Below, in pieces: positions 8,101 through 61,043 of a stretch of DNA of 64,000 nucleotides. The notes under the pieces are model-generated. The model made no database searches. It saw only the letters and a list, made by a program, of their open reading frames with translations, and was not told the origin of the DNA. The DNA comes from Patescibacteria group bacterium (GTDB taxonomy: Bacteria; Patescibacteriota; Patescibacteriia; Patescibacteriales; JBAZCA01). Where the stretch lies: contig JBAZCA010000001.1 of assembly GCA_041671125.1 (NCBI GenBank), forward strand, positions 200,120-264,119, written 5' to 3'. Position 1 is the stretch's first letter. Every line of letters begins with the position of its first letter. The position numbers and the translations under genes were made by a program.

Positions 8101-11100
8101 CCACTTTTTGGTTGGTATAAGAATTGCCGGAACCGTCATAGTCTTTGGTCGGAGCGGAAGTTACGTAAATATTGGCGGAAGAAACCGAGGAAACCGTCAG
8201 AACTTCATAATTGCCCACGCTGCCGTAATCAGCGGATGCACCTTGAAGATCAACCAGCAAAATTTTATCGCCGGCTACGATTCCGGGAGCGTTGGTTGTC
8301 GCGGTGATGGTCGTTCCTGATATGCCGCTCACTCTATAGGCGATGCCATCGGCGTAGGCGCTGTTGTCATCGCCGTCCGCGCCCAAACTTTCAGTGTTAA
8401 GGTTTTTACTGGCGGAAACCGTCAGCGCGCCGTCCGATCCGTCGCCGACATAAACTCCGGTTTGCAGTTTTAGTTGGCCTCCGGCAACTTGATAGTTGGA
8501 AGATGAGCCAGTGTTGATTTTAGTCGTGTCGGCATAGGAATCAGCGACAGTAGCTGATTGAGAACTGGAAGCGGAAGATGCCGTTCTTGTCTGAATTTCA
8601 ATATTCCCGGCGTTGTAGTTGACAAGAATTTCTTCGGCGGAAATGGCGCGAGAATAGACGCGAACGGAGTCAATAGTACCATTAAAATACTGTGATAAAC
8701 CATTTCTAACACCAACTAAAAGATTCGTTGAAGTTACGGAGTCAATAGTACCGCCTGCCGTATTTGAATTCTTTAAAACACCGTTAAGATAAGAATAAAT
8801 AGTAGTTCCGGAATGAACAAGCGTAAAGTGATACCACTCTCCCTGATTGGTATAGCCAAAACAAACTGTTCTCCATGTTCCGCCGTCATATGTCCAGCGA
8901 GCGCCCAATATATTTGTTCCGCAATCACCCCAATAAATCTCATAATTTGACCTGTCAGGAGATGCTTGCCTTTTGGAAATTATCTGTCCGGTCGCGGCTC
9001 CTGACAATTTAAACCAACCCTCTATAGTAAAATCGTTATTTCCTAAATCAAGACTGGAATTATTGGAAAAATCCACATAATCATTTGTCCCGTCGAACAT
9101 CAAAGCTCCCGCTCCCCATCTCCGGTTGTCCGCTGTCCAACCTGTTCCGGCGGCGGCGTCGCGCGATCCGGTGGACGCGAAGCTGGTGAGCGTTCCGTCG
9201 CAATTGGCCGGCGTTCCGCCGCAAGAAGTCCCCTCCGCGTCATTGTTGGCCGCCGTGCCGGAAGCTTCATTGAAATTCCATTGCGCCACCAGGCCAGTGG
9301 AAGAAGAAAGCGTTTCCCCGTCTCCGGTTTGATTGCCGTTTTCCGTCCATTGGATGGTCTGCCAGTCAACGCCGTTTATTCCCCCGTCAATAACCGGAGA
9401 AGTATAAATTCCATAAGGGCTCCTTTGCGCGTCAGCTTTAATTTCTTCGGGAGTGCGGGCGACATTAGAAATGCGGACTTCGTCAATGACACCGTCAAAT
9501 CTGTTGGTGCTATTATACCACTCTCCGATATACAGAGTTGCGACAGACTGGGTAGACGCGGAAATAGTAATAGCCATGGATCCTTCCAAAACACCATTGA
9601 TATATAAATAAGTTTTTGACCCGTCGCTCACCCCCGCAACATGATACCATCTGCCCGCGATTATCGTCTGGGTGCTGGTAATATCGTTAGCCGCCACAGC
9701 TTGTTTAAATACGCTGAACACAACCTTGCCGTTACTGTCCAGATAAAGAGTGTAGCCAAATTCGTTGGAAACATTTTCCTGTTTGTTAATAATAATCCTT
9801 GAAGTTGTCGCATCAGCATAAAACCAGGCTTCAGCCGTGAAAGCGCTGGCTTGATTAAAATCCAAAGAAGTGCTGTGCGCCACCGTCGCGTAATCGTTCG
9901 TTCCGTCAAAAGCTCTCGCCGCCAATCCTAATCTTTGGCTGGTTGTTTCAATTGTCGTTCCGGATTCAGTCGCGTGATTTCCGTTTCCGGAACTGTCGCA
10001 AGCATCCTGTCCGGCAGAACAGGAATCATTGGCAGTTTCATTCATATGCCAGAGTCCGACCGTATTTTTGTCCGCCGGCAGTTCGTGATAGTAGCTTTCC
10101 AGCTTCGGACTGGCTCCCGATCCGGAGTCATAAATTCTGTTTTTCACGCCTGTAAATTCACTCGACTCGTCATGCACCACACTCGGATCGATCCGAATCG
10201 GAAACTTTCTGGCCGGATCGTTGAGCCACTTTTGGGAAGGCTTAATAATCACACTATATTTCTGACTATCATCGCCAGCCAAAGCCGTTTTTATCATTGA
10301 AAATTGATTTTTTAAAATTGATTGAAAATTATTTTCGCTATCCATTCCCACTTTCTCATCCTTAATTTCTTTGATCTGCATCACAATCTCATCTGATTTA
10401 TTCCCCACTGCATCAATCATTACCGGTTTCAAAAAGTGAAAAGCGTATTTTCCTGTTTTTTTATCAACAAAAGCCGGCGAATAAATTCCTTCCGCCACCT
10501 TGATTGGTTCCACGTTTTTCCCTTCCAAAGAAAATTCCCAGACCGGCCCGACAAATTTTTTCGTCTTTTTAGACGCAAAATTTTGCGTCTCCATGGCTTT
10601 TTTGTCTTTCAAAACAATTTCTTCCTTCACGCCATGATCGATAATCTCATAAGTCAGATCGGTTTGAGGCAAAACATCTTTTATTATTAATTTATCTTTG
10701 TTAAATTTGTCTTCTTTGGAATTTTGGATTTGAGATTTATTCGTTATTTGTGATTTGTCATTTGTCATTTCAGCGTCCAACGCCATAGCCAGACTGTCAC
10801 CTCCCACCGAAAAATTCACCCACGATTTGGACGGATCTTTCTTGTCCAAAAATCCCACCTGAAAATCACGATTGATATTTTGGTATTCATACTCTCCGCC
10901 CCAACTGTTTTTTGAAATATCATAGTTTATCTTCACCGACCGATTCTTGAGCCAACGCCAAGCGAACGGCGAACCGGCTATGATTGCCAAAAGAAAAACA
11001 GTCGCCCCGATGCGCTTCCAATCAAAACGCATTTTTTTTCGGTCGACAAAAAGCAGAAAGAAACGGCGGGCTAATTTATTCATTTTTAAAACTATTTTTT

Positions 11101-11116
11101 TCATAAATATCTTCAA
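2177..11116 (-). CDS. Giant membrane-anchored surface protein with four LamG (concanavalin-A-like lectin) modules, two poly-glycine modules and C-terminal FN3/Ig-like repeats
   Basis: One uninterrupted 2979-codon ORF, with TTG at 11116 and the first ATG at 11104. The N-terminal anchor helix reads ..IGATVFLLAIIAGSPFAW.. LamG hallmarks appear four times: ..TVGLWH(M/L)xE.. or ..LVAQWNFNE.. at the start, and ..IDEVRISN(V/T)ART(P/A)(E/A)EI.. or ..IDSVRVYSRAISAEEI.. at the end. The C-terminus contains ..GYRVYRDD.. and ..LTYQWQRS.. Confidence 0.85.
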   Translation of the reverse strand: MKIFMKKIVLKMNKLARRFFLLFVDRKKMRFDWKRIGATVFLLAIIAGSPFAWRWLKNRSVKINYDISKNSWGGEYEYQNINRDFQVGFLDKKDPSKSWVNFSVGGDSLAMALDAEMTNDKSQITNKSQIQNSKEDKFNKDKLIIKDVLPQTDLTYEIIDHGVKEEIVLKDKKAMETQNFASKKTKKFVGPVWEFSLEGKNVEPIKVAEGIYSPAFVDKKTGKYAFHFLKPVMIDAVGNKSDEIVMQIKEIKDEKVGMDSENNFQSILKNQFSMIKTALAGDDSQKYSVIIKPSQKWLNDPARKFPIRIDPSVVHDESSEFTGVKNRIYDSGSGASPKLESYYHELPADKNTVGLWHMNETANDSCSAGQDACDSSGNGNHATESGTTIETTSQRLGLAARAFDGTNDYATVAHSTSLDFNQASAFTAEAWFYADATTSRIIINKQENVSNEFGYTLYLDSNGKVVFSVFKQAVAANDITSTQTIIAGRWYHVAGVSDGSKTYLYINGVLEGSMAITISASTQSVATLYIGEWYNSTNRFDGVIDEVRISNVARTPEEIKADAQRSPYGIYTSPVIDGGINGVDWQTIQWTENGNQTGDGETLSSSTGLVAQWNFNEASGTAANNDAEGTSCGGTPANCDGTLTSFASTGSRDAAAGTGWTADNRRWGAGALMFDGTNDYVDFSNNSSLDLGNNDFTIEGWFKLSGAATGQIISKRQASPDRSNYEIYWGDCGTNILGARWTYDGGTWRTVCFGYTNQGEWYHFTLVHSGTTIYSYLNGVLKNSNTAGGTIDSVTSTNLLVGVRNGLSQYFNGTIDSVRVYSRAISAEEILVNYNAGNIEIQTRTASSASSSQSATVADSYADTTKINTGSSSNYQVAGGQLKLQTGVYVGDGSDGALTVSASKNLNTESLGADGDDNSAYADGIAYRVSGISGTTITATTNAPGIVAGDKILLVDLQGASADYGSVGNYEVLTVSSVSSANIYVTSAPTKDYDGSGNSYTNQKVVVQRIPQYTNVTVENGGTITASGWDALATAPTGNAGFYTGIVAFYANGTATVNNGGKVSAETLGYNNSETYRGTYAYGGGGGGGGGQYSTRPIGVKGTGGTTGGGDGGNGANNGGTGQNGVDGASSGGTKGLGAIGYGGNGGGGGAGGGAGAGSGNGGSSHNGNNVYFGGGGGGGSIGYSGAGGSGGGGGGSWYGGAGGNGGSAAGGAPGVIGDETGVGGGGGGGGGGGYGTAGGGGKGGASYTGNCNGVNGSTVGGNGADTCGNWTIGGGGGGGGGAGGVAYGAENLSQLYFGSPGAGQVNNSSGGIIAIFCNNLVVDNSGSITANGANAAEASSTYGTGGKGGSSGGSILIQGNTATLNTSRVTASGGTGSSNAGGGGAGGSGRIAVYYNSAPSGTTSPTAYTAQGDLVGYQTSGTVISTNLLTGVSSVNSITSFVYNLSAKPGSTTATIQFSQDGTNWYNKDKGSGSETLTTGVNNTITLSGWTASANFYYKIAFGGDSTDTPVLDDVTLDYIIPTDDYNWEAWKPAGAGTETQIASMDTESTAWQVDSYMNSDSTISKVGGINIGTGDDGDCIIDNGTKTLDSDAGSAVCNSSARATAYAVNFSDTTLEKTGETSVTVSATPTGLAAGDEILIINLQGTSTNYNSVGQYETHIISSISTNDLNFTDYPLKNTYDGTTQKIMVQRVPNFGNVTVCGGNTGGGCSAAATLTITAWNGTKNGVLFFRSNGTVTVNSGGAVSVTGKGFTAGSTGMAYGGNSFGGAAGNGNWYASGGSGGGGGGIGGGSAVNSTGGSGSALGGAGGGGGYAGNYGSGGGGGGYGTGGGGGYGINNGGSGSYASGSGGNGNSTNAGGGGGGGTLGSSELSNIFLGSGGGGGGDGWSCGRSGASGEGDGGGIAYISGNAISVAGSIANNGDNGLAGLYCYVSGARYSGGSGGGSGGTIRLDGNSVGISGSVTASGGSGGTIASGYNGGAGGSGRIAVNYSSSLSGITTPVAYTKKLQSQAKQEGTGSLQTSVGAPQTDANTVGLWHLDETNVGVGSTAYDSSGNGRNGIAGGAGTTVTDGFAGKARSFNGTSDYISATIPAIGAGNFSASTWIKTTYTAGNQAILDNRGSAAQGFITYVEQTTGKAAVYIYSSSVEASVVGTTNIADGKWHLVVGQYDSTALKIYIDGALENSVTKAWTNGGISTSLLIGKDNAGGSFFHGSMDEIKLSNTARTAEEIAEAYRAGRDHRLSRTISSTDLSSASKLPFYIAADRPGTYLETTVGESAFANYEPDANTVGLWHLEEQSGSGAYIKDSSSSGNNGTPTGTTFSQGKIGKARNYTATTNKITTGSVVTTATNNFTIDTWVNWSGSSTGYGQYLVYNGNSGTSGWGIYLNSSDSHQIHFLYGGVIDVDTNIALSSNSWNHIVMKRDNGTLYGYLNGALFYSGSASVPNTPSGYTYIFGDQNANDAFNGLIDEVRISNTARTAAEIRQAYEVGRRTHPITIDFAASLDSGNLIADTNDLSFTVNSQTYGATNKGDNLYTGDKVIVKENYNGTEYIAQGTTTAVAASTGAVTISAWDAGSTFPAGGFTVNATVFKWQREYWDLTGAMDDQINASTNLTLRLTDGLGGRNIYLDDFESVSNYLTDPAATSNIISTDSRYIQYRAIVSATDTNVSPYLSEVSIDYLLPPDQPSDVAATDETYGEKVVVTWTKSTGATGYRVYRDDVSVSGDLGDVATYNDSGADPPVITPGTAGATDGTNKEYVALSLSGESAANGTTHVYKVVAFNASGDSPDSLTDTGYRGAQSLTYQWQRSADDSDASYSDISGGITNPYNDTGAPTDGSGRYFHCILSATGSVSQTSTADRGYRDPTPDITTSAVSSITDTGASANADITSIGGSTVIARGFEYGLTETGTWETHETGSFSTGVFSLPLAGFTHDTTYYIRSYATNSAGTGYGGWIMFSTTMDVSPVELKKNVELRKNIEIK
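3640..4260 (-). other. LamG module 4 (approximate bounds)
   Basis: Runs from ..TVGLWHLEE.. to ..FNGLIDEVRISNTARTAAEIRQAY.. Confidence 0.7.
4390..5030 (-). other. LamG module 3 (approximate bounds)
   Basis: Runs from ..TVGLWHLDE.. to ..FHGSMDEIKLSNTARTAEEIAEAY.. Confidence 0.7.
5140..6420 (-). repeat. Intragenic module copy 2: beta-rich segment plus a poly-glycine block of about 240 aa
   Basis: ..YETHIISSIST..QKIMVQRVPNFGNVTV.. is followed by runs of G and ends ..GGAGGSGRIAVNYSS. It is collinear with copy 1. Confidence 0.7.
6925..8480 (-). repeat. Intragenic module copy 1: beta-rich segment plus a poly-glycine block of about 320 aa
   Basis: ..YEVLTVSSVSS..QKVVVQRIPQYTNVTV.. is followed by runs of G (GGGGGGGGG and similar) and ends ..GGAGGSGRIAVYYNS. 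Confidence 0.7.
8600..9300 (-). other. LamG module 2 (approximate bounds)
   Basis: Runs from ..LVAQWNFNE.. to ..FNGTIDSVRVYSRAISAEEILVNY.. Confidence 0.65.
9415..10070 (-). other. LamG module 1 (approximate bounds)
   Basis: Runs from ..TVGLWHMNE.. to ..FDGVIDEVRISNVARTPEEIKADAQ.. Confidence 0.7.
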
Positions 11117-11132
11117 TTATATATAAATAAAA

Positions 11133-11830
11133 TTACTTCGCGCACCTGAACCCGACGTCGTCCATCGCTTCGTGCGGGGCGTGCGAAAGATCCAGCGAAT
11201 AAATTCCATTTTCTCCCCGGACAAAGCCGCGGACTTTGTCCGATGACTCTCCGGTGATGATTTTGCCTATTCCATTGTCAGTGTCATTCATATAATACGG
11301 CGGACGGATGTTGCCGAGCGATTTGTAGGAAAAAACGTTTCCATATTCTTCCCAGCCGCCCGCTCCCGCCAAAGGCATATCTTCCTGGTTTACGATTCCC
11401 CTGGTCCATTCGCCCATACCGGCTAATTCATATATCATATTCCCGTTAGTCAGGATAAAGGGCGTGGAGCTGGCCGATTCGGCAAGATTCGCCGCGGTTG
11501 ACGTCGCCAGCTGTAAACCGTAAATATTCGGATCAATATCATTACCCTCTGCCCGGATAATATTATCCGCGATGGTGAGCCATTCTGAATCGCTCATTAA
11601 ATGATAGCCTTGCCCAAGGCTCTGGCATCTTATGTCCGCCTCGCCTTGGCTGATTCCTGTCCAAACCGGATAGCTGTTATCAACAATATTCGCTAAATTC
11701 GTTTCTGATCCGTTTTCATTCGCGAGTTTAACCATGACGCAGAAGCCCGGAAGCGTTCCGTATTCAGCCGAACCCGGAATCCAGGTAAATCCTTCATCGC
11801 AATAACCTTCATAAGCTCCGGCGACGACTT
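11133..11830 (-). other. C-terminal C-type-lectin-fold-like domain (FGE-sulfatase / DUF1566-like)
   Basis: ..WTGISQGEADIRCQSLGQGYHLMSDSEWLTIADNI.. with the terminal ..VGFRCAK. Confidence 0.45.
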
Positions 11831-14800
11831 TGCCTTCAACTCCTAAATCGCCTAAAGTATCATCAACTTTCTCGTCCAGCCGGGAAGAGCAGGCACCGGA
11901 AGAGCAGACTAATATCCGACCGTCAACTTCAAGCTCCCCGACGATTGCCACTTTACCTCCTGAGGTTATGTTCATAATGGAAACTTCGCCGGATTTAAAG
12001 TCAGCGACATCGCCCGAACCGATCTGATTAACGATAAAGGCGGTTTGGGCTGTCGTAGAGGCGGTTTTAATTTCCATAATCGCGACTTCGGTAGTCGTGG
12101 CGGATGTAATAATGGTCACAGTCGCGCCGCCGTCAGCTCCAAACCTGCCGTCTCGTCTGTTATCCAATATCTCCGCCGTAGAGCTCGCCAGTTCATCCAG
12201 TCTGCCGTTAACCACTAACCATTGGTCGCTAAGCAACAGCGTTTGATTATTGATAATTGAAAAATTATTGATCATTGATAATTGCGCGTCCGCCAAAGCT
12301 TTAGCGACGGCGGAAAAATTGAAAATTTCGTCCCTTAATTCATAATTCTTAATTCTTAATTCTTCTATTTTACTGGTAAGATCATCGGTGGTGACAGTTA
12401 ACTCGGTTGAAAGCATAAACAACTTCGGATCTACAATTTCCCCGATTTTTGAATCTAAATTAAGCTGTTCCACGGCCGAGGCGATTAGCCGATTAACTTC
12501 ATCTTCAATCGCCATATCCGCCACCCGGTCGGAAACCAATTTTTCCACTTCTTCAACGGCTAAGGATTTATTGCGGCGGGAAATAAGGACTTTAATCTTT
12601 CCGGTTCCTTCCAGTTTTGATTCAAGAGCTATGCCGACGGTTGAATCGCCGCCTTCGGCGCGCATGGCATAGCCGGGCGTGGATGAGGCTGAAGTCAGGG
12701 AGTCGCCAACTCTAACAGGTCCGTTTTCGGCTGAGACAAAAGCGTCAACCTGGCCGAGCATGCCGACGATAGCGTAGCCGGAAGGATTTAGGGCAATTTC
12801 TTTTGAATTATTACCAACGATTGAAGGCTGGGTTGATACTATGCCCATAACGTTGTTATCCGCCCCCCGATCGCACCTCTTTACGCCGTTCTCCCTCGTT
12901 ATGTCAATACAAACTACTTCGCCTGATTTTAAATCCGAATCCGCTGTTTTAAAATACTCAGCGTAGTCGGCGCCGGTAGCGTATGCCCCGACCGCGTAAA
13001 CCGTTCCGGCCACTGTTGCCCCGGTGCAGGTATCATTATTGTCAACGCATAAATATCCATTGGCGATTTTGACGTTTTTTCCGGAAGCGGCTGAACCGAT
13101 ATGCAAACCGGCGGAAGGACTCGTCGTCCCGATGCCGATGTTGCCACTCTTATCAATCAGCAAACGAGTTGTCCCTGCTGCTATCGGGTCGCCCGCTAAA
13201 GCATTACTCGTTTTTATTGCAAAATCTCCATAAGCAGTAGAATTAGCGCCAATAAACCAATTTCTGCTATCTACTTGTGAAAAGGTTGTGTCTAATCTAA
13301 TACCAGAAGAGGTGTCTGCTCCAGTAAATCTAGCCGAGGGGACACCCGTAGCTGTACTGATAACATCAATTTTATATCCCGGACTCGTCGTCCCGATCCC
13401 CACATTCCCACTGCTCCCTTCTACAAACAGTTTGTCATTGAGGTTGATGTCCACGTCCGTGCCGTCACCCAGTTTGACATAGTCTTGCGCTCCTTTGTAG
13501 AGATCAAGAAGATATTTGCCGCCGATGTAACCGCGGAAGCGGTTATCGTCAAAACTAAGAGTTGTGTCAGTGTCGTCGTTGTGGTGGATGAATTGATTGA
13601 TGCCCAGGTCTCCATTAACATCCAACTCGTAGTCGGGATTGGTCGTCCCGATGCCCAGATAGCCGGAGTTAAGGACAGTGATTTTTTCCGCTCCGGCGCC
13701 GTCAAAGAGGTTAAAAATCGGATTGGTTCCGTCGCCTTTGACTGAGAGCCTGGCGGTCGGGGAAGTCGTCCCGATGCCGACGTTGCCGCTGGAATCAATC
13801 CGCAGTCTTTCCAGTCCGTTGGTGGAAAAATTGAGCGTATCCGCGCCGCTGGACCAGAGGCCGGTATTCAGGTCAGACCGGAAGGCGAGGCCGGGGTCGG
13901 CGGCCGAGCCGGAGCCGAAGGCAATCTTGCCGTTGACGTCAAGAAGCGCCAGCGGGATGGCGGTGTTAACGCCGACATTGCCTCCGGCGTAGTTGATGCC
14001 GCCAGTAGCTTGCGCCCAATAGCCGGCGCTGCTGCCGCTTCCATTGAGAGAGACGGCGATTCTGGCGGTAACCGTGTCGGCGCTGTTATTATAAAAGCGC
14101 ACCGTATTGGAATCCTGAATCCGAAGCTGGTATTGGGATTGTTCATACGTCACAGTGATGCCGTTCACCGCTGGAGTGAGGCCGGTGGTGGTTTCCATTC
14201 CCACGGCAAAATCCAGGGTTTCAGTGGAACCGACGGCGTAGCCTCCGGAAGATTCCTGCTGGGCGTCGGTGAGGGCGTTCATTTCCGTGCCGGTCATTTG
14301 ATTGGCGGTAACTTGCATAGCTTGATCCAACGCTCCGGCTTGGGTGTTGGTAGTAGCGGCTGTCCAAGTAACGCTCGTTAGTCCGGTGGCCGTGTTGGCG
14401 TTGTATTGCCAGGTGCCGGAGTTGTTTCGGGCAATCGGACGCCAGCCGGCGTTTCCGTCGGTGTTGTCATATATTTTCCAGGTGGAACGGTCATCATATG
14501 AAACGGCGTAATGGATGGTTTCTCCATTGGTGGTTTCGGTGACGGCGATGGAGTTGATATTGGTCCAGTAGGAGGAATCCAGTTGGTTGGTGTCGGTGGT
14601 GGTGGTGATGTAGAGGGAGTCGATGGGAGAAAAAATGCTTTCAAATACATGGATGTTAAGCCCATAATTGCCATTTCCCACATTGACATAGGCAAGCTTG
14701 TTGTTGGGAAAATAGGTTATTGCCAGCGAACCAAGGGTAGTGCTATAGACAGCGCCGAGATCGATAGGATTTTTTGCATCAATAGTTATGTTCGTGCCGC

Positions 14801-17800
14801 TCACGGCAAGATTGAGGTAATAATAATTGGAACCGGATGATTTATACGCCACGCCGACATCAGTGGAATTATACGCGGCAATTGCCGGAAAATAGGTAGC
14901 CGCGCTGTTGAAAGTAGTTTCCGTGCCGTAACTGACATTCACACCGGAGGCTGTTGCTACAATGGCCTTGCCAAAAGTGTCGGAATCGCGGTAAGCGATG
15001 ATGGCTTTGTCGGTAGTAAGTTGGGTGGCGGAGATATGGGTGCTGGCCGTTCCATTGAATTGCGTTTCCGTGCCAAAAGTGATTGTAGCAGTAGAAACGG
15101 AAGCCACAATGGCTTTGCCTAAAGCATCGGAATCCTGGTAAGTAATGATGGCTTTGTCGGTGGTGAGTTGGGTGGCGGAGATATAGCTGGTATCTGTTCC
15201 ATTGAATTGCGCTTGCGTGCCAAAAGTGATGGTTGTACCGGAAACGGAAGCGACCCTGGCGTAACCAAAAGCGTCGTAATGTTTGTAAGCGATAATGGCT
15301 TTGTCGGTGGTGAGTTGGGTGACGGAGATATAAGGAGTGTTGGTATAAGTGGAAGAATTGAAAATAGCTGCCGCGCCAAAAGTGATGGTTGTACCGGAAA
15401 CGGAAGCCACAATGGCCTTGCCAGTGTAACTGCCAGCACTCTCAAAATAAGCGATAATGGCTTTGTCGGTAGACAATTTGGCAGTGGAAATTCCAAGCAT
15501 AGAAGCACCAGCATTAAAAGAAACGCGAGTCCCATAGGTAACCGTAGTTCCGGAAACAGAAGCCACTACTGCATATCCAGCAGTGGTTCCTGCATAAGCA
15601 ATTAAAACTTTATCGCTTGAAAGTTGAGTTGCTGACACCGGATAAGAACTAGTATACAAAGAATAACTAAATGGCTCGTCAGCTCCATAGGAAATAGTAG
15701 TGTCGGATACATCCGCCACTCTTCCTGTTGAATTATTACTGCCATTGACAGAAGCAATAACTAAAGCCTTATCCGTGTCCGCTTTCCCTACCGCTGTGAA
15801 TCCAACAATGCTGGAAAAATAACTGGCTTCCGCGCCGTAGGTGATGGTTGTGCCGGAAACGGAAGCGACAATGCTTTTGCCAAAAGTATCGGAATCCTTG
15901 TAAACGATGATAGCTTTGTCGGTGGTGAGTTGGGTGGCGGAGATATAGGTAGTATCTGTTCCATTAAATTGTACTTCCGCGCCGTAGGTGATGGTTGTGC
16001 CGGAAATGGAAGCCACAATGGCTTTGCCGAAATTATCGGAATCCCGGTAAGCGATGATGGCTTTGTCGGTGGTGAGTTGGGTGGCGGAGATATAGCTGAA
16101 AGACGTATTGAATTGCGCTTCCGCACCGTAGGTGATGGTTGTGCCGGAAACGGAAGCCACAACGGCCTTGCCATAGCCATCGGAATCCTCTTTGTAAGCG
16201 ATGATGGCTTTGTCGGTGGTGAGTTGGGTGGCGGAAATCTCGCTGGTAGCCGCATTGAATTGCGCTTCCGCACCGTAGGTGATGGTTGTGCCGGAAACGG
16301 AAGCCACAATGGCCTTACCAAAAGTATCGGAATCCCGGTAAGCGATGATGGCTTTGTCGGTGGTGAGTTGGGTGGCGGAGATAAGGATGGTAGTCGCTCC
16401 ATTGAATTGCGCTTCCGTGCCGTAGGTGATGGTTGTGCCGGAAACGGAAGCCACAATGGCTTTGCCTAAAGTATCGGCGCTAGTGTCCTGATAGGTGATG
16501 ATAGCTTTATCGGTATCAATCTTGGCAACCGAAACGTAATCAATTCTGGTCGAATTAAACACAACCGGCGTGCCGTAGGTTACGGACGACCCGGAAATAG
16601 TGGCTACAACCGCGGTACCAAAATAACCATATTCCGCATAAGCGACTAAAACTTTATTTGCGCTGATTTGAACAGCGGAAATATAATTGGTACTTCCCGT
16701 AAAATAAACTCCCGTTTTTATCTTTCCATTATCCTGGCTGGCTTTGAAATCATTAAGCGCCAACTGTTCCAAGCTATTGTAATCCTTCATCGCCTGTCCG
16801 GTCATTTCCCAACTGCCCGAGGCGATGGGGTCGGTGTTGGTGAAAGCCGTTACCACCGTGGCGGTGATGGTGGTTTGAGCGGCCGGGTCGTCGTTGATAA
16901 TCACTTCCCCGCCGTTCCCTGTAATTCTCATGCCTTTTTTCACCTTGGCGTTGTCGTTCCAGTTGCCACTTCCCAGAGTGAGTGTTATGTCTCCGGTGGT
17001 GGCGCTGGGAGTGAGAGTTGTTGCGTAGGCCAGGTTGTCCAGATCATAGTTAGATTCGTCAACGATATCCATATCCAAAGAATCATCCGTATTGGAATCT
17101 CCCGTAGCGGAAAGGGTGCTGACATTTTGCCAGACTGTGCCGTTGGAAACCCAAGCATCGGCAACGACATCGGTGGTATTTTGTCCGTGGGTTACGTCCA
17201 AGTATCCTCCGGCAGCGACCAGACCGGAGTTGGTGTAAAGTTGATAATCTGAATCAACGCCGCCGCTTCCCAGCGCCAGCCAACTGCCGCCGCTGTTTTT
17301 GTATTCCAAAGTTCCACTGTTGTCCCGGATGCCATAGCCGTCCGAACCGTCAATACTGCCAAAATTGAAATAACCCGAAGCCGCTATCCCTAAATTTCCA
17401 TTGACATCCAGAGTATGGCTTGGAGTGCTAGTGCCTATGCCGATGTTTCCTCCATTGTCAAACAAAACGGAATCAGCCAAAGTGGTGGCTGTGCCGAATT
17501 TTGGCAAATAACCTATAGTTCCCGATCCCCCCATGCCGGCGGTTAAGAGGGCGCCGTTGACATAGTAGTTGCCGCTGATGTTGATGTCCCCGGCGACATC
17601 CAGTTCATAATTCGGATCCGTCGTCCCGATGCCAACGTTGCCGGCGGTTCGGTAGATATCCGCGCCGGAAACGCTCCAGTTTGAGCCGGTGCCGGGTGAG
17701 AGAAGTACGCCGTTGGAATAAATTTCCGTGGCGTTAAGCGTTCCGGCAACGTTTAGCTTGTAAGCGCTGACAGACGTCGTCCCGATCCCCACATTCCCAC

Positions 17801-35293: not shown

Positions 35294-35317
35294 GCTTATT
35301 CCATCGTTTTATCTTAT

Positions 35318-41165: not shown

Positions 41166-41212
41166 ATTTATTTTATGCGTAACGTAATGCGTTATGCGTT
41201 ATGCGAAATAAT

Positions 41213-43089: not shown

Positions 43090-43139
43090 GCAAATCGTCA
43101 ATCGCAAATCGTCAATCGCAAATCGCAAATCGTAAATCC
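43090..43139. repeat. Period-7 tract (CAAATCG / TCAATCG units) abutting the tRNA 3-prime end
   Basis: caaatcgtcaatcgcaaatcgtcaatcgcaaatcgcaaatcgtaaatcc. Confidence 0.85.
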
Positions 43140-44409: not shown

Positions 44410-44621
44410 TTCTTCCCTCCTTTGCTCCAATAGGAGCTGAAAAAGCCAAATCCAAACATCCCGCAAAATCGCGAAACAAACAAACAAATATTTTAATTAA
44501 AAAGATCGCAAAATATAAAAACATCTTAACCCAAAAGTTAAGACGGAATTACCAAGTTAAAATAACCCCGGTATTACAAAATCAATTATAAAACTTTTAA
44601 CTTTTCACTTTTAGCTTTTAA

Positions 44622-45032
44622 CTACTTCCCCCGATCCATGGCCTCATTGGCTAATCGGTCGGCTTCCTTGTTTTTTTCCCTCGGAATATGCGTAAACTTA
44701 ACCTTTTTAAAACCTAAAGTCAAGTTATGGACTTTTAAAAATAACGGCGCGATTCCTTCGTTTTTTACCTTATACTCGCGCTTTAATTGTTTAACAACCA
44801 GCTCCGAGTCAAGATAAAAATCAAGCTCTTCCGGGTTAAAAACCCGGGCTTTTTCTAAGGCCGCGATAACCGCTTTATACTCGGCCTGATTATTAGTGGC
44901 CACGCCCAGGAATTCAGACACAATAAAAACTTCAGCGCCATCGGGATCGTAAGCAATCGCGCCAATCCCCGCCGGCCCCGGATTGCCCCGCGCCCCTCCG
45001 TCGGTGTAGATAGTTATTTTCGCGAAACTCAT
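44622..45032 (-). CDS. rnhA: Ribonuclease HI
   Basis: ..IYTDGGARGNPGPAGIG.., ..NNQAEYKAVIAALE.., ..DSELVVKQL.. and ..NKEADRLAN.. supply the DEDD catalytic residues. Confidence 0.9.
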   Translation of the reverse strand: MSFAKITIYTDGGARGNPGPAGIGAIAYDPDGAEVFIVSEFLGVATNNQAEYKAVIAALEKARVFNPEELDFYLDSELVVKQLKREYKVKNEGIAPLFLKVHNLTLGFKKVKFTHIPREKNKEADRLANEAMDRGK

Positions 45033-45105
45033 AACTCATAACTCATAACTCATAACTCAGCCCGTAACTTAAAAACGTTACGGGTTATGAGTTATGAGTT
45101 ACGAG
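45029..45105. repeat. 77-bp palindrome built from heptamer repeats, containing the rnhA start codon and the recJ stop codon
   Basis: (CTCATAA)x4 CTCAG CCCGTAAC ttaaaaac GTTACGGG (TTATGAG)x2 TTACGAG. The inner stem is 8 bp and the outer stem is about 21 bp with 1 mismatch. Confidence 0.9.
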
Positions 45106-46869: not shown

Positions 46870-46971
46870 TTACATGAAAGCCATGCCAACGCTAAAGATT
46901 ATCATGGAAATGATAATCATGACGCTAAGGATCGCCCAGACGATTTTTACGATTTTCTTTTGCTTGGCCAT
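46870..46971 (-). CDS. Possible 33-aa small membrane protein (not in the ORF track)
   Basis: Own translation gives MAKQKKIVKIVWAILSVMIIISMIIFSVGMAFM*. It has one hydrophobic helix after a basic N-terminus and lies in the recJ-lepA spacer. Confidence 0.3.
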   Translation of the reverse strand: MAKQKKIVKIVWAILSVMIIISMIIFSVGMAFM

Positions 46972-47089
46972 AAATAGAATTTTTAATTCTATAATTTTAT
47001 AATTTTTAAACCAATACCTTAATTATTAATGTTTAAAAATTCAAGCATTAAGAAATTATTTAAAAATTACAAAATTAAAAATTATAAAA

Positions 47090-50856: not shown

Positions 50857-50987
50857 ATTATTTAGATCGCCCCGTGAAAGACAGAGCAAAAAATTAAGAG
50901 CAAGCCTATATTTCATAATTATCACACAAATCATAAATAAGCAAGCTAAAAAGGTTGATTTTATTGTTGAATGAGGGTATATTAAAA

Positions 50988-51090
50988 TTAATTTCCAATT
51001 TCCAATTTCTAATTTCTAATAACTTAAAAATTATAAATTTAGTCATTGAAAATTGTTTAAAAATTACAAAATTAAAAATTAAAAATTTTA
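50988..51090. repeat. Period-7 AT-rich tracts in the dapA-lysA divergent spacer
   Basis: (AATTTCC)x2 (AATTTCT)x2 at 50990-51017. The 26-mer TTTAAAAATTACAAAATTAAAAATTA at 51056-51081 is identical to 47059-47084. Confidence 0.85.
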
Positions 51091-51094
51091 AACC

Positions 51095-53674: not shown

Positions 53675-53685
53675 GCACAATAACA

Positions 53686-53812
53686 AATTACCAATTATCA
53701 ATGATCAATTTTCAATGAATCAATTTTTTAATTTTCAAAACTGATTTTAAAAAACATTGGAAAATTTAAAATTGAAAATTCATTGGTCATTGAAAATTGG
53801 TAATTGATAATT
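53686..53812. repeat. AT-rich imperfect palindromic intergenic element (family member 1)
   Basis: It shares ATTACCAATTATCAAT (53687-53702) and AAATTCATTGGTCATTGAAAATTG (53776-53799) with 58641-58656 and 58728-58751. The arms are reverse complements at word level (TTTTCAATG/CATTGAAAA, CCAATTATCAAT/ATTGATAATTGG). Confidence 0.8.
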
Positions 53813-53815
53813 GAT

Positions 53816-55543
53816 TTAGATTCCTCTCGCCTCGCCCTTGTCTTCGGTTTCCAGCTTAGACCAGGGTAGGCGGCGCTTAAAAGAATTCCAAAAAGCGAAA
53901 AATTCTTCGCTTTGCAAAAGGCGGCAGAATAGAAGAAAAACCGCGATGCCGCCGAGTCCCGAGAAAAGTCCCTGGAACGCCACGCCGAGAAATGTATCCA
54001 TGTCTATAAACGGCCAGACCACGAGTTTTAACCCCTGGACGGACAGGCCGCAGGCAACGGAAGCGAGAATAATTTTCAACGTTGAAACCAATATCCTTTT
54101 CTCGTCCAACTTTCCGGTCTCCATTCTGAGATAAATCCAAAGCAGGATAAAGTTAATGGTACTGGAAATGGAAAAAGCCAAAGCCAGGCCGGCGACGCCC
54201 AAAGGAAGACAAGCGCTTACTCCGCCAAAAGGGCTGAACATTACTCTGCACGACATAATTTTAGGAAGCCAAAGGCAGAGCCCGGTATTCATGGCCACGG
54301 AAAACAAGCCGATGTAAAAAGGCGTCCGGCTGTCGTGCCGGGCGTAAAAAACCCGAACCAGAAGCGGCATGAGCGCCTGCGCTAGAAGGCCGATAGTAAA
54401 AAAAGCTAGGGTATCAATAGTCATAATCGTATCCTCCCAGTCAAAATGGCCGGAACCAAGGATTACCCGGACAATCTGCGCCCGCAAAGTGAGGAGCAGG
54501 ACGGCGGAAGGAATAATAAAAAAAATAATTTGTCTGGCGGCTAAAGAAAAACTTTCCACTAATTTTTCACGATGAAAAGCCTCCCGCGCCAGCGTCGGAA
54601 AAACCGCGACGGCGTAAGAAATCCCGAAAATTCCAACCGGAAACGATTGTAAATTATTAGCAAGATTAAATACCGTGAGCGAACCGCTCTTCAGGGTTGA
54701 GGCGATGATAGTTAAAACTACGAGGTTAATCTGGGTTATGGCGAGCGACATGGTCCGCGGCCCCATCATCCGCATAATTTTCCGCAAATTCTTTTCTTTC
54801 CAGTCAAGTATAAAACGATAGCGAAAACCGAGGCTCCGGACCGAAGGCCATTGGACGAGCATGTGAAGTAGCGCGCCGAGCGTTACGCCCCAAGCCAGGC
54901 CGTGGACGCCGAAAAAAGGTGTTAAAAACAAAGCGCCTAAAATTATCCCGACGTTGTAAAAAACCGGCGCTAAAGAATAAATAAAAAAACGCCTAAACGA
55001 CTGGAGGATGCCGCCGAGTACTGAAGAGACCCCTAAAAATATCGGCGATAAAAACATGATTCGCGTAAGGCTCACGGTAAGCGCTAACTTCTCCCCGCTG
55101 AATCCCGGAGTGATGAGGCGGGTTAAAAACGGCGCGGCAATTATTCCAATAGCGGACAATATAATCAGGCTTACGGCCAGTAAATTTAAAATGTTGCTGG
55201 CGAGCAACCAGGCTTCGGCGTTTCCGTCTTTTTTCTCATTGCCGTTCTGTTTTTTTTCCAAAAATTTTTCGCGTCTTTCGTCTTTCTTTCCGTGTTTTAG
55301 CAAGGAGGTAAAAACCGGGATAAATCCGGCTGACAGAGCGCCTAAAACCAACAAGTTAAAAATTAAATCCGGCACGCGAAAAGCGGCATAATAAATATCC
55401 AAAGTATCGCCGGCGCCGAACTCGCTCGCGAGAATCCTATCCCTGAATATCCCCAAAAGCCGGCTGACTAACGAAAAAAAAGCCACCATGGCGGCCGCCA
55501 GGGTGATGCTGTTAATTTCCCCGTTTAGAATTTTTTTAATCAT
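53816..55543 (-). CDS. murJ: Lipid II flippase MurJ
   Basis: ..SRLLGIFRDRILASEFGAGDTLDIYYAAFRVPDLIFNLLVLGALSAGFIPVF.. The start ATG at 55543 overlaps the upstream stop as ATGA. Confidence 0.9.
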   Translation of the reverse strand: MIKKILNGEINSITLAAAMVAFFSLVSRLLGIFRDRILASEFGAGDTLDIYYAAFRVPDLIFNLLVLGALSAGFIPVFTSLLKHGKKDERREKFLEKKQNGNEKKDGNAEAWLLASNILNLLAVSLIILSAIGIIAAPFLTRLITPGFSGEKLALTVSLTRIMFLSPIFLGVSSVLGGILQSFRRFFIYSLAPVFYNVGIILGALFLTPFFGVHGLAWGVTLGALLHMLVQWPSVRSLGFRYRFILDWKEKNLRKIMRMMGPRTMSLAITQINLVVLTIIASTLKSGSLTVFNLANNLQSFPVGIFGISYAVAVFPTLAREAFHREKLVESFSLAARQIIFFIIPSAVLLLTLRAQIVRVILGSGHFDWEDTIMTIDTLAFFTIGLLAQALMPLLVRVFYARHDSRTPFYIGLFSVAMNTGLCLWLPKIMSCRVMFSPFGGVSACLPLGVAGLALAFSISSTINFILLWIYLRMETGKLDEKRILVSTLKIILASVACGLSVQGLKLVVWPFIDMDTFLGVAFQGLFSGLGGIAVFLLFCRLLQSEEFFAFWNSFKRRLPWSKLETEDKGEARGI

Positions 55544-56715
55544 AACAAATCTTTGATAATTTCCTTTGTCTTTGCGGCAATAGAGTCCCAATCGTAGTTA
55601 TTTTGAACCAATCTTTTTCCGTTTTCAATTATTTTCTTCCTCAGATAAAAATCATCTAAAAGAAGAATTATTTTTTCCTTTATTGACGCCGGGTTGCTCG
55701 CCTCGCAAAAAACCCCTGTTTCATTATCTTTTAAAAAATCCGGAATCCCGCCGACTGGCGTGGCGATAACCGGAATCCCGGCCGCCATGGCTTCTAAAAA
55801 AACATTTCCCAACCCCTCGCTAAGGGACGGGCGGATAAAAACATCGCTTATCCAAAGATATCGCGGCACTTCATTATGCGGAACGCTTCCCAGGAACAAA
55901 ATTCTTTCTTTCAGGTTTAGTTCTTCCGAAAGCTCTTTAAGCCGGCCTTCCAATTCTCCACCGCCAATAACCAATAATTTACATTTAGGCTCGGGTTTTT
56001 CCTTCAGAAGTAACTCCATCGCTCTTATCAAATCCTCAATCCCGTTCTTTTTCACCAATCTGGAAACGGTAATCACAACTCTTTCACTCTCCCCTATTCC
56101 TAATTTAGATTTTAAATTTTGATTTGTAATTTTTAATTTTGAATTTTTAATTTTGAATTTTCTTATGTCTACCCCGTTCGGCACGATCGCTATCTCGCAT
56201 CTCGCCCCGGACGAAACCGCGCGTTTTTTTAAGCTCGCGCTAATGGCGGTAATATAGTCGGCCTTTTTTATCGCCAGCCTGTGGATTGGCTGTACAAAAA
56301 TTTTGAACAGGGCCTCATTATCCAGCGCGTAGCGCTTAAGATGCTCTTCCTCATCTCCCTCCTGCATGTTAAGCAGGAGTTTTTTTTCCGGAAAAAACAT
56401 TTTAAAAAAAGAAGCTGCTAAGCTTCCCTGGCTGGCCATAATTGACCAGGCTACGGAATAATTATTTTTTCGGTTAAGGCTTAAAGCTTTAAAGAACCCG
56501 AAAAAAGGAAGCAAAAACTTATCCAGTTTAGTTCCAAAGCCAACGCGAAAAACATTTACCCGGCCAATCTTTTCCTGTCGGGGCAAAACCCTGTCCAGCC
56601 TGGCGGTAATCAAATCAAATTCAATATCCTTAATCCTGCCGGTAATCTCCTTAACCGCGATTTCCGCTCCGCCAATAAGCGGCAGGTAAGCCGTGGAAAA
56701 AATCAAAACTTTCAT
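55540..56715 (-). CDS. Glycosyltransferase family 4
   Basis: ..GGAEI.., ..VSRLVKKNGI.., ..LVIGGGELE.. and ..RPSLSEGLGNVFLEAMAAGIPVIAT.. (EX7E). Confidence 0.85.
   Translation of the reverse strand: MKVLIFSTAYLPLIGGAEIAVKEITGRIKDIEFDLITARLDRVLPRQEKIGRVNVFRVGFGTKLDKFLLPFFGFFKALSLNRKNNYSVAWSIMASQGSLAASFFKMFFPEKKLLLNMQEGDEEEHLKRYALDNEALFKIFVQPIHRLAIKKADYITAISASLKKRAVSSGARCEIAIVPNGVDIRKFKIKNSKLKITNQNLKSKLGIGESERVVITVSRLVKKNGIEDLIRAMELLLKEKPEPKCKLLVIGGGELEGRLKELSEELNLKERILFLGSVPHNEVPRYLWISDVFIRPSLSEGLGNVFLEAMAAGIPVIATPVGGIPDFLKDNETGVFCEASNPASIKEKIILLLDDFYLRKKIIENGKRLVQNNYDWDSIAAKTKEIIKDLL
56104..56163. repeat. AT-rich period-7 element in frame in the GT4 gene (encodes KFKIKNSKLKITNQNLK)
   Basis: The coding-strand 50-mer AAAATTCAAAATTAAAAATTCAAAATTAAAAATTACAAATCAAAATTTAAA matches 46/50 with 29628-29682. 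Confidence 0.85.
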
Positions 56716-57658: not shown

Positions 57659-57677
57659 AAACTAACAATCAATTTAT

Positions 57678-57721
57678 CCGCCTTTGGCGGAAAAATTGTA
57701 AATTGATAATTGATAATTGGA
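57678..57721. repeat. Small GC hairpin plus period-7 AT tract between the epimerase and UXS genes
   Basis: CCGCC-TTT-GGCGG is followed by AATTG recurring at 57694, 57701, 57708 and 57715. Confidence 0.8.
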
Positions 57722-58624: not shown

Positions 58625-58635
58625 AATGTATTAAT

Positions 58636-58762
58636 TTTCAATTACCAATTATCAATTTACAATAAATTTTCAATGTTTTAATTTTTCAATTTTTAAACAT
58701 TTGAAAATTGAAGAATTGTTTAATTGGAAATTCATTGGTCATTGAAAATTGATAATTGATCA
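58636..58762. repeat. AT-rich imperfect palindromic intergenic element (family member 2)
   Basis: See 53686-53812. The 16-mer and the 24-mer are shared exactly. Confidence 0.8.
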
Positions 58763-58789
58763 TTTTTTAGAATAAGCTTGCAATTTCTC

Positions 58790-59647: not shown

Positions 59648-59786
59648 AAGTTTGATTCTTACTGATTATTATTCTATTATTATGTAAAAGGCGGTAAAAG
59701 TCAAAAATTATAATCCGGGACGCGCGACACATAACCAGTCTGCTGAATTGCTTTAAAGCTGACATGAACATTGTGCGTTATATGTT

Positions 59787-61043
59787 ATGCGAAAAAAAAT
59801 CCTCTACCTCATCACCCAATCCGAAACAGGCGGCGCCCAGCGCTATGTTTTTGATTTGGCCAAAAACCTAAAAGAAGAGTATGACATAAGTGTCGCTTTT
59901 GGCCCGCTTCGCTGGAGCTATGGCGAAGCGGGCCAGCAAAGCGAGGCGAGGAAGCCGGGTAAAACCAGCGAACTGGCAAAAACCTTAAAAAATGAAAATA
60001 TTCCCTATTATATTATCCCCCATCTTAAAAGGGACATTTCACCTTTCAATGATGTAGCCGCGATTTCTGAAATTGTTGCGTTGCTAAAAACAATTCAACC
60101 GGAAATATTACACCTAAACAGCTCAAAAATCTCCATCCTCGGCTCCTTGGCGGGCTTATTTATAAAATTAAAAATTAAAAATTGTAAATTAAAAATTGTA
60201 TATACCGCCCACGGCTGGGTCTTTAACGAACCCATGTCATTTCTAAAAAAACTCTTTTATAAATGGACGGAAAAAATTACCGCGCGTTTTAAGGATAAAA
60301 TTATCTGCGTTTCCGAATTTGACCGGCAAGCCGCCTTAAAAGAAAAAATCGCCCCGCCCGAAAAATTAATCACAATCCATAATGGCATTGGACCGATCAA
60401 CTTTTTATCGCGGGAACAAGCGCGGAAAGAAATTGAATTTAGAATTAAGAATTTAGAATTAAGAGCGCAGAATAAAATTATTATCGGTTCTGTCGGTAAT
60501 TTATATAAAACCAAGGGCTATGAATATCTCATTGAGGCCGCCAAAATCCTAAAAGAAAAATTCTTAATTCCCCGTCTCGCCCTCGGCGAGCCGAGGCGGG
60601 TTAATTCTAAATTTTTAATTTTTATAATTGGCGAGGGTAAAGAAAGAAAAAAACTGGAAGCGCTAATTAAAAAAAACAATCTTGAAGATATGGTTATTCT
60701 GGCTGGCCGGATTCCGGACGCCGCGAGACTGCTCAAAGCTTTTGATATTTATGTTTGTTCCTCAGTCAAGGAAGGTTTATCCTACACTTTAATTGAAGCT
60801 CTGCGAGCCGGACTGCCGATCGTTGCCACTAATGCCGGCGGCAATCCTGAAATTATCGCGGGCGCCGCGGACGGAGCGCTTATTCCGGTCAAAGACGCGA
60901 AAACGCTCGCCAGCCAAATTGAAAAATTCATCAAAGACAAAATCCCGGCCCGGGAACTTTCATCTCTCAGACAAAAAAACCCCCAGGAATTCACACTTGA
61001 TAAAATGATAAAAAAGACAAAAGAAATTTACAATAGTCTATGA
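59787..61043 (+). CDS. Glycosyltransferase family 4 with three AT-rich repeat-encoded insertions
   Basis: ..GGAQRY.., ..SVGNLYKTKGY.., ..IIGEGKERKKLE.. and ..SSVKEGLSYTLIEALRAGLPIVAT.. Confidence 0.85.
   Translation: MRKKILYLITQSETGGAQRYVFDLAKNLKEEYDISVAFGPLRWSYGEAGQQSEARKPGKTSELAKTLKNENIPYYIIPHLKRDISPFNDVAAISEIVALLKTIQPEILHLNSSKISILGSLAGLFIKLKIKNCKLKIVYTAHGWVFNEPMSFLKKLFYKWTEKITARFKDKIICVSEFDRQAALKEKIAPPEKLITIHNGIGPINFLSREQARKEIEFRIKNLELRAQNKIIIGSVGNLYKTKGYEYLIEAAKILKEKFLIPRLALGEPRRVNSKFLIFIIGEGKERKKLEALIKKNNLEDMVILAGRIPDAARLLKAFDIYVCSSVKEGLSYTLIEALRAGLPIVATNAGGNPEIIAGAADGALIPVKDAKTLASQIEKFIKDKIPARELSSLRQKNPQEFTLDKMIKKTKEIYNSL
60163..60200. repeat. Period-7 AT tract in frame (encodes KLKIKNCKLKIV)
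   Basis: aaaattaaaaattaaaaattgtaaattaaaaattgta belongs to the same word family as 29628-29682 and 56104-56163. Confidence 0.8.
60434..60463. repeat. (AATTTAG AATTAAG)x2 period-7 tract in frame (encodes EFRIKNLELR)
   Basis: It is related to the AATTCTT tract at 12335-12365 in the giant gene, which encodes ELRIKNYELR. Confidence 0.8.
60581..60628. repeat. GC hairpin plus period-7 AT tract in frame (encodes ..LGEPRRVNSKFLIFII..)
   Basis: CCTCGGC-GA-GCCGAGG is followed by ttaattc taaattt ttaattt ttataat. Confidence 0.7.

Follow-up and report, generated by a model that had tools for sequence, protein, structure and literature searches.

Introduction

Tandem repeats with a unit of seven bases have been described in prokaryotes on several occasions. 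As summarised in two later papers, Mrazek, Guo and Shah reported in 2007 that heptanucleotides form the most abundant repeat class in the majority of prokaryotic genomes, and Mrazek and colleagues proposed that they arise by polymerase slippage tied to how much DNA the enzyme holds (PMC4679880, PMC4692102). Relatives of repeat-bearing strains have shorter spacers that lack the repeats (PMC4679880, PMC4692102). TAACTGA repeats are scattered across phyla, occurring in marine Beggiatoaceae, cyanobacteria and a few Bacteroidetes (MacGregor 2015, PMC4679880), while other described cases comprise the STRR sequences of Calothrix (three tandem heptanucleotides), GGGAATC in Xanthomonas and GGGGAYT in Nostoc (Rehm et al. 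2015, PMC4692102). Borg elements, which are archaeal and extrachromosomal, are outlined as carrying pervasive, fast-evolving tandem repeats between and inside genes, where they add peptide segments (PMC9879509). Here we analysed heptamer arrays in a 64,000-nt stretch of a Patescibacteria group bacterium (GCA_041671125.1, contig JBAZCA010000001.1, positions 200,120 to 264,119; hereafter the window, with coordinates counted from its first base). An initial annotation of this DNA had listed A/T-rich heptamer tracts at gene boundaries and inside genes and held that no described mechanism or element class produces them, a view that is not tenable given that the heptanucleotide excess with its slippage proposal and the STRR, TAACTGA and GGGAATC/GGGGAYT repeats have all been published (PMC4679880, PMC4692102). 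We consider it reasonably probable that the tracts are heptanucleotide simple-sequence-repeat (SSR) arrays of slippage-type origin in a Falkowbacteria-like Patescibacteria lineage.

Excess of period-7 arrays

All 17 intervals listed in the initial annotation were inspected in sequence, and extra arrays were sought with Tandem Repeats Finder (TRF). Each of the 17 contains 2.7 to 7 tandem 7-base units, and TRF reported period-7 arrays at essentially all of these sites and, beyond them, at 12243, 35220, 51057, 53686-53815 and 58629-58764. Some entries need qualification: heptamers are present at 28736-28806, not as one tract but as arrays of 2 and 2.7 units around a GC hairpin; period 7 was confirmed at 41187-41207, yet with only about three units; and 60601-60628 is weak (TRF score 34), being mostly native coding sequence shared with the orthologue (NSKFL..IIGEG).

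A strict scan of the 64 kb detected 14 period-7 tracts versus none in 30 block-wise dinucleotide shuffles, with 0-2 tracts for each remaining period within 4-15. A relaxed scan detected 21 period-7 tracts versus 0.8 in composition-matched local Markov shuffles, the density in the window being 0.33 per kb; periods other than 7 and 6 stayed at background, and the six period-6 tracts (0.85 expected) are attributed, without the tracts having been checked singly, to CCGCCT-type repeats found by TRF in the giant gene. The same scan of 50 kb of the Escherichia coli K-12 genome, used as a control, returned no period-7 tract. Autocorrelation, a check proposed along with the initial list and run here on the window, gave z-scores of 7.0 at lag 7, 5.6 at lag 8 and 5.0 at lag 14 for intergenic DNA and a period-3 signal only for coding DNA; 8-base units also occur in some spacers (46978, 47063). 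The tracts are thus real and non-random, as had been claimed. By TRF and scan, 16-21 arrays consist of at least about three head-to-tail 7-base copies, and these are over-represented both against composition and against other unit lengths, in agreement with the prokaryotic heptanucleotide SSR class.

The relaxed scan placed 12 of the 21 tracts between genes and nine inside open reading frames (ORFs). Intergenic DNA makes up 6.8% of the window, which bears out the reported concentration of tracts between genes.

Different arrays at the same sites in relatives

Two syntenic relatives, L001 and L081, share 73-93% nucleotide identity with the window, and comparison of orthologous loci, also suggested initially, revealed that arrays differ in presence, unit and length. 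The murJ/dapL spacer is 141 nt long in the window and 92 nt in L081, and the two genes overlap in L001; the spacer between the UDP-glucose dehydrogenase and epimerase genes measures 165 nt versus 7 nt in L081, and that between two epimerase genes (57659-57721) is reduced to 21 nt there; the spacer downstream of lepA is 117 nt versus 3 nt in L001; and the recJ/RNase H spacer is 93 nt versus 29 nt without an array in L001. The lepA and recJ/RNase H junctions fall outside the L081 sequence, as does the UDP-glucose dehydrogenase/epimerase junction for L001. The reverse case is the dapL|lysA spacer, 12 nt long in the window and 139 nt with AATTTCY arrays in L001. Elsewhere, both genomes carry arrays with different units: seven GATTTGC/GATTGAC units 3' of tRNA-Pro in the window correspond to five AATTGCC/AATTGTT/AATTTTC units in L001, followed by the same terminator hairpin; the pilB|translin-like spacer of L001 has another array (ATTTTCA/ATTATCA); and the divergent lysA|dapA spacer contains arrays in the window, L001 and L081, with units that differ in each. 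Polymorphism between close relatives, a feature of the heptanucleotide SSR class, was found on comparing the window with L001 and L081 at 8 spacers, and these alignments show that arrays turn over much faster than the genes flanking them. A strict scan returned no tract in L001, the closest relative, but a lack of arrays in that genome was dismissed because degenerate arrays in its spacers fell below the strict threshold.

Across 81 related loci (1.42 Mb), period 7 outnumbered every other class of repeat present in three or more copies, whatever the score threshold applied; at one threshold, 103 arrays had period 7, 38 had period 8 and 24 had period 9. Their spread is patchy, with none in 42 of the 81 loci and up to 0.8 per kb in some, and several loci have the unit families AACGCAT, AACTCAT, AAAATTG and AAATCCG in common. 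In L081, a 10-unit array (GCCTAAC x2, GCATAAC x2, GTGGAAC x6) was also noted at 5707-5775 between convergent genes that overlap by 6 nt in the window.

Arrays and hairpins in intergenic spacers

Arrays mostly take up all the DNA between one gene's stop codon and the start codon of its neighbour, and are found in convergent, co-directional and divergent spacers; of the 18 spacers that are at least 40 nt long, 9 exceed a lag-7 z-score of 2.5. Both convergent spacers of any length contain palindromic blocks, neither assigned to a strand. Between uvrA (+) and a metallophosphoesterase gene (-), palindromic AAAATTA/TAATTCG arrays occupy 35220-35291, with arms 90% complementary and an RNA fold z of -6.6 (folded as 35215-35300). 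Between dapL (+) and murJ (-), a 141-nt palindromic block (53675-53815; fold z=-4.4) has the unit order ATCAATT ATCAATT ACCAATT TTCAATG ACCAATG and so on, together with the inverse. Strand is likewise unassigned for (CGTTATG)3.3 in the pilB|translin-like spacer (41183-41205), for (AACTTTT)4.6 at 44592-44623, which abuts the stop codon of the RNase H gene and lies upstream of that for sigma-70, and for (AATTTCC/AATTTCT)4.4 plus (TTAAAAA)4.3 in the divergent dapA|lysA spacer (50985-51092), where the hairpin is weak (z=-3.1).

On the minus strand, the seven units associated with tRNA-Pro (43090-43138, read on the gene strand) lie between its 3' end and a canonical terminator hairpin. A palindrome composed of (AACTCAT)4.9, a GC core hairpin and (GTTATGA)3.1 fills the recJ|RNase H spacer (45020-45112), folds at -42.3 kcal/mol (z=-8.2), and includes CTCATAA/TTATGAG units that contribute the stop codon of recJ as well as the ATG of RNase H (45032). 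Just downstream of lepA and ahead of a short conserved ORF preceding recJ is a palindromic A/T block (46972-47093) of 7-8-base units, AATTTTAT and AAAATTAC (fold z=-4.8, folded as 46970-47095). Also on this strand are an AATTGAT-type array with a small GC hairpin (CCGCC AAA GGCGG) in the two-epimerase spacer (57659-57721; fold z=-5.1) and a palindromic block in a 165-nt spacer at 58625-58789 (fold z=-5.7, folded as 58628-58772). On the plus strand, a weak TTATGCG-type array at 59767-59805 surrounds the ATG of a GT4 gene (59787) and is 77% identical to 41181-41219. Relative to L001, arrays appear to have rewritten gene ends, in that the recJ stop codon and the RNase H and GT4 starts lie in heptamer units. 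We also noted a 33-residue ORF upstream of recJ (46870-46971), which has about 84% nucleotide identity in L001, was called as a gene in the second assembly, and could encode either a small protein or the N-terminus of recJ in detached form.

Eleven tract-bearing regions were folded, and seven of them, all in spacers, reached z-scores from -3.1 to -8.2 relative to shuffles. The usual structure in spacers is a long A/T-rich hairpin whose arms are two inverted heptamer arrays. Composite terminator-like units with a small GC hairpin, initially described as accompanying many tracts, do occur (28736-28806, 45020-45112, 57659-57721 and 60575-60628) but form a minority rather than the typical arrangement, and two of these four (28736-28806 and 60575-60628) are inside ORFs. 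The tracts were rejected as intrinsic (Rho-independent) terminators, the GC-stem-plus-T-run pattern not being matched at tract sites: a consensus promoter and terminator scan of the window revealed no enrichment there, its 49 terminator matches (32.5 expected) being mostly within genes. By eye, a stem-plus-T-run hairpin adjoins the array 3' of tRNA-Pro. At the gathering threshold, Rfam identified only tRNA-Pro in the window and no RNA family at the blocks.

Arrays inside genes

The nine in-gene arrays are located in the giant ORFs, the Wzy-like ORF, GT4 glycosyltransferase genes and ORF 30001-31002 of the same gene cluster; none was found in the housekeeping genes of the window (about 24 kb). 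Translation of the nine agrees with the initial statement that such tracts encode K/I/N/L-rich peptides. Their description as in frame is correct in a restricted sense, in that a 7-base array cycles through all three frames but one open frame is kept and the insert length is a multiple of three where orthologues could be aligned. In every in-gene array exactly one frame is open, sometimes by virtue of a single variant base, for example AAT TGT AAA in place of AAT TAA AAA with its stop codon, and such stop-avoiding variants account for the 14- and 21-base super-periods reported by TRF. The aligned inserts are lineage-specific and occupy variable protein loops or linkers, and their net length is a multiple of three in every alignable case.

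Most of these arrays are on the minus strand. Giant ORF 2177-11116 contains about four ATTTGTC/ATTTGTG units at 10737-10770 (translated ..MTNDKSQITNKSQ..), and near the C-terminal end of giant ORF 11133-28088 are a degenerate TTGATAA array (12243-12284; QLSMINNFSIINNQ) and (CTTAATT)4.4 (12334-12364; EELRIKNYELR). The segment at 28736-28806, in an ORF with a Wzy_C domain, consists of GATTGAC x2, a GC hairpin (CCGCCCG...CGGGCGG) and CGATTGA x2.7 and is translated in frame as 25 residues; the Pfam match of this ORF extends over 170 residues for 149 positions of the profile, in keeping with an insertion. The Wzy-like ORF also has an AATTTTN-type array at 29629-29679 (translated AKFKIKNLKLKITNRNLKF). 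A perfect (ATTCGTA)4.4 array at 30808-30838 in ORF 30001-31002 (translated KITNYELRITN) is situated in a hypervariable loop, where a 66%-identical homologue has a shorter segment without an array. In GT4 glycosyltransferase 55540-56715, another AATTTTN-type array (56104-56161; translated RKFKIKNSKLKITNQNLKSK) lies in the interdomain linker, which is hypervariable and contains 7-residue periodic peptides, such as KFEIRNLKFEIRNL and NYELRITNYELR, in 22 of 96 homologues.

The second GT4 gene (59787-61043) carries its arrays on the plus strand: AAAATTA/AAAATTG units at 60164-60200 (translated IKLKIKNCKLKIV), where the G variant sidesteps an in-frame TAA and the corresponding segment in the L081 orthologue differs and is shorter, and (GAATTTA GAATTAA)2 at 60435-60464 (translated EFRIKNLELR), an 8-residue insertion relative to L081. 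At 60575-60628 (+), an in-frame GC hairpin insertion that L081 lacks is followed by weakly periodic native coding sequence, and this stretch is unconvincing as an array. Small GC-rich hairpins are thus inserted in frame at 28757-28785 in the Wzy-like ORF and at 60575-60600 in the GT4 ORF (the latter without a counterpart in the L081 orthologue), and they may be small inserts of another type that accompany the arrays. Among the relatives, the highly conserved LepA also carries inserts in variable loops: that of L008 has PKFSILNFQFSNKSEIRNPKSENEK, derived from (AATTTTC)n and (AAATCCG)n, and LepA of L004 has the insert LPITNYQ derived from (TTACCAA)n. The window and L001 also share a 14-residue insertion (SLDQRRLKNLDSDG) and two smaller ones at LepA residues ~425-445 that other relatives lack and that have no obvious heptamer origin.

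Genomic setting and other insertions

The sequence of the window identifies its source as a Falkowbacteria-like genome of the Patescibacteria (candidate phyla radiation, CPR). Its LepA (47090-48982, minus strand) is 94% identical to that of a Patescibacteria metagenome-assembled genome and 66-78% identical to those of about 80 genomes labelled Falkowbacteria, Parcubacteria or Patescibacteria. The window contains the two giant ORFs (2979 and 5651 residues), envelope and glycosylation genes (Wzy-like, GT4 enzymes and epimerases), and housekeeping genes (uvrA, recJ, lepA, dapA/B/L, lysA, murJ, pilB, a sigma-70 factor gene and tRNA-Pro).

Repeats of other kinds are also present. The giant ORFs have 147-150-nt repeats (49-50 residues, 71-85% identity) at 5457-7870, 14959-16477 and 20657-21002 as well as plus-strand runs of CCG/CCGCCT-type 3-, 6- and 9-base repeats; they represent domain repeats and low-complexity coding sequence and differ from the heptamers. 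Also unrelated to the heptamers is a 42-nt perfect tandem repeat (28244-28339; 2.3 copies, 100% identical), which lies in the spacer of 318 nt that separates the Wzy-like gene from the start of the 5651-residue ORF. Larger differences from L001 include two ORFs at 37013-40581, one of 609 residues with Memo/AmmeMemoRadiSam-B-like and epimerase-like matches and one of 586 residues with no match, which are missing from L001, where the flanking genes stand only 91 nt apart. Conversely, L001 has an ORF-bearing insertion of ~690 nt between dapA and dapB (7535-8226) and another of ~940 nt between dapB and lepA (9060-10003) that the window lacks; the product of the latter shows a LAGLIDADG-like motif (..GYIDAEGNIG..) and is a possible homing endonuclease of the free-standing type.

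Possible origins of the arrays

If the tracts are heptanucleotide SSR arrays, A/T-rich words, mostly AATTNNN or CAATNNN, would have been duplicated and homogenised in 7-base steps, probably through slippage during replication or through mis-aligned repair, either of which would intrinsically favour steps of about 7 bases; the polymerase-footprint idea of Mrazek and colleagues is the only proposal published so far. Dispersed blocks with the same order of variant units show that arrays and inverted array pairs have sometimes been copied to new sites as well. They persist only where tolerated, i.e., in short spacers and at in-gene sites that have one open frame and correspond to variable loops or linkers, and the spacer hairpins formed by inverted arrays might insulate, stabilise or end transcripts.

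Several observations weigh against this explanation. Three pairs of sites in the window share variant-unit order, namely 53675-53815 and 58625-58789 (79% identical over about 132 nt), 29629-29679 and 56111-56161 (92% over 51 nt), and 47053-47091 and 51050-51088 (92% over 39 nt), which simple slippage does not explain. Nor does it explain a CTCATAA/TTATGAG palindrome, resembling that of the recJ|RNase H spacer, which is found in L046 between ftsW and murG and not at the recJ junction, or the presence of a 24-mer from the two large blocks, CAATTTTCAATGAYCAATKAATTT, in 8 metagenome contigs of 33-61% GC, most matches being within similar palindromic heptamer blocks. In AATT-core arrays, the core varies by 4.6% versus 12.5% at the other three positions (2.7 times less; Fisher p=4e-8), which hints at selection on the word, although A/T mutation bias could also give this result. 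No within-population copy-number variation was seen, the sole second assembly (L082, a separate ENA assembly) agreeing with the window base for base (100%) across 18,461 nt, every tract in that span included. A scan of a metagenome collection with the flanks of the 45020-45112 palindrome and gaps of variable size matched nothing, the window's own allele included. Finally, the preference for a 7-base unit is not explained by the present results.

The main rival explanation holds that the blocks are small non-autonomous mobile or dispersed palindromic elements, similar to REP/BIME, MITE or Rickettsia palindromic elements, with heptamer-periodic arms, which would insert at the ends of genes and now and then in frame within them, slippage being left a secondary role. 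It is compatible with the SSR reading and explains the shared higher-order blocks, and dispersed copies similar beyond the unit were indeed found (the three window pairs at 79-92%; L004, L005 and L046; and the 8 contigs), as were imperfect palindromes capable of hairpin formation (the seven folded spacer regions). Presence or absence relative to L001 and L081 in whole blocks of 60-160 nt, the palindrome at the ftsW/murG junction and the occurrence of the 24-mer in diverse contigs, one of them Phycisphaerae-like, also favour such elements. On the other hand, neither defined ends nor target-site duplications, with or without terminal inverted repeats, could be seen where junctions were aligned with L001 and L081, and the genes annotated in the window include no transposase; the units are mostly locus-specific, as in-place growth would produce; orthologous sites carry arrays of different units, which resembles in-place concerted change; and low-complexity arrays of similar words can converge in sequence. 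We regard a mobile element origin as unlikely, if worth keeping in view. An extended version, which is still more doubtful, is that a heptamer-periodic palindromic family (CAATNNN/AATTNNN) spreads across phyla, from Patescibacteria to a Phycisphaerae-like genome of 61% GC, inserting at gene boundaries and in frame even in essential proteins such as LepA through a copying or mobilising activity specific for 7 bases rather than generic slippage. Among the contigs that match the 24-mer, L085 has an (AATTTTC)-type array (1655-1678) in frame in a prepilin peptidase (A24) gene at 34% GC, and L088 has a CAATNNN array (26-49) at 61% GC and codes for a protein most closely related, among named sequences, to one from Phycisphaerae, implying that related arrays exist outside Patescibacteria.

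Selection for function offers another route, in which the arrays would be cis-acting sites, either transcript-ending or transcript-protecting hairpins or rows of sites for a single-strand-binding protein of the cold-shock/S1 type with a footprint of ~7 bases, the latter being what has been proposed for TAACTGA repeats. The palindromic blocks in both convergent spacers, the hairpin z-scores of -3.1 to -8.2, the conserved AATT core and the persistence of an array at a site while its units change would fit this idea, as would the finding that CspB binds heptamer repeats with one protein per heptamer (PMC4679880). We nevertheless give it little credence, considering that close relatives lack arrays at the same junctions (0-7 nt spacers) and 42 of 81 related loci have none, that the units are highly diverse and occur in spacers of every orientation and in ORFs, and that the GC-stem-plus-T-run terminator pattern is not matched. 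The in-gene arrays might alternatively act as phase-variation switches, the gain or loss of 7-base units shifting the frame of envelope genes. Frame-shifting phase variation through heptanucleotide repeats operates in neuO of E. coli K1, and the restriction of in-gene arrays to the giant ORFs (presumed surface proteins) and the Wzy-like, GT4 and same-cluster genes, together with the perfect 4.4-unit array at 30808-30838, would suit a similar role. The majority of in-gene arrays depart from perfect repetition, and the stop-avoiding substitutions in them would make slippage slower; their positions are in mid-gene loops, the housekeeping LepA of relatives contains arrays too, and only in-frame alleles were seen, the second assembly included, all of which makes switching very unlikely. 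As to an assembly or library artefact, or chance in A/T-rich DNA, the sole point in favour is that low-complexity A/T sequence is hard to assemble, and the probability is practically negligible: shuffles contain almost no tracts, so that the shuffled-composition control posed as a refutation leaves them standing, arrays recur in the independent, identical assembly and in many related genomes from many studies rather than on one contig only, and in-gene arrays keep their ORFs open. The SSR reading is retained here.

Significance and comparison with known repeat systems

Why prokaryotes prefer 7-base repeat units has been a question since 2007. The genomes of Patescibacteria are very small and tightly packed, and spacers of 100-165 nt that consist almost wholly of arrays stand out against the 0-7 nt found at some of these junctions in close relatives. 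This lineage provides many natural gain and loss events for testing slippage, mobility and selected function, and it illustrates how repeats can remodel stop and start codons and add loops to conserved proteins. The phenomenon appears here in an unusually clean form: native spacers are very short, gains and losses are numerous, essential proteins carry inserts, and sharing across phyla is hinted at. In practice, such tracts can mislead gene callers and give odd low-complexity segments in predicted proteins of candidate phyla.

Several known systems resemble the window arrays in part. REP/BIME, MITE-like repeats and Rickettsia palindromic elements are dispersed imperfect palindromes at gene ends, and Rickettsia palindromic elements also insert in frame into protein-coding genes that stay functional. 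The window blocks share both features, being located at gene ends and, as in-frame inserts, in genes; unlike those elements, they have arms made of 7-base repeats, in-gene inserts are mostly short direct arrays, and no conserved element of fixed length was found. The GGGAATC/GGGGAYT and STRR repeats are intergenic heptamer arrays too, some as inverted pairs capable of forming stem-loops, with strong variation in length and sequence among close relatives at a given gene junction, but GGGAATC/GGGGAYT repeats are G-rich and quadruplex-capable whereas the window arrays are A/T-rich. The window contains no tandem doublet of GGGAATC or GGGGATT and none of CCCCAGT, TTGGTCA or CAACAGT, which we take to be the STRR units, and its organism is a relative of Patescibacteria; membership in these families was therefore rejected. 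Borg repeats are tandem repeats in both spacers and genes, as in the window, and their outline in PMC9879509 states no preferred unit length such as 7. TAACTGA repeats are closer, with sets of 2-7 heptamers at gene boundaries, a single translatable orientation in ORFs that yields 7-residue peptide repeats, shorter repeat-free spacers in relatives and a distribution over scattered phyla, all of which have parallels in the window (PMC4679880). The window unit TCAATTA is one base off TCAGTTA, the reverse complement of TAACTGA. Unlike TAACTGA repeats, the window arrays involve many units without a dominant word, have no preference for positions just upstream of start codons, and form palindromic blocks; with seven singletons and no doublet of TAACTGA in the window, they were not assigned to that family.

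A literature search yielded no report of heptamer or tandem repeats of this sort in Patescibacteria or the CPR. As the class is characterised in the summaries cited in the Introduction, prokaryotic heptanucleotide SSRs share with the window arrays tandem 7-base units, over-representation, a mostly intergenic location, many units per genome and variation among relatives, whereas those of the window are rich in A/T around a core of AATT or CAAT, often form inverted pairs, and are also found in protein-coding genes. The window arrays may thus be placed in a previously known repeat class and, as far as we could find, represent its first case in the tiny-genome Patescibacteria lineage.

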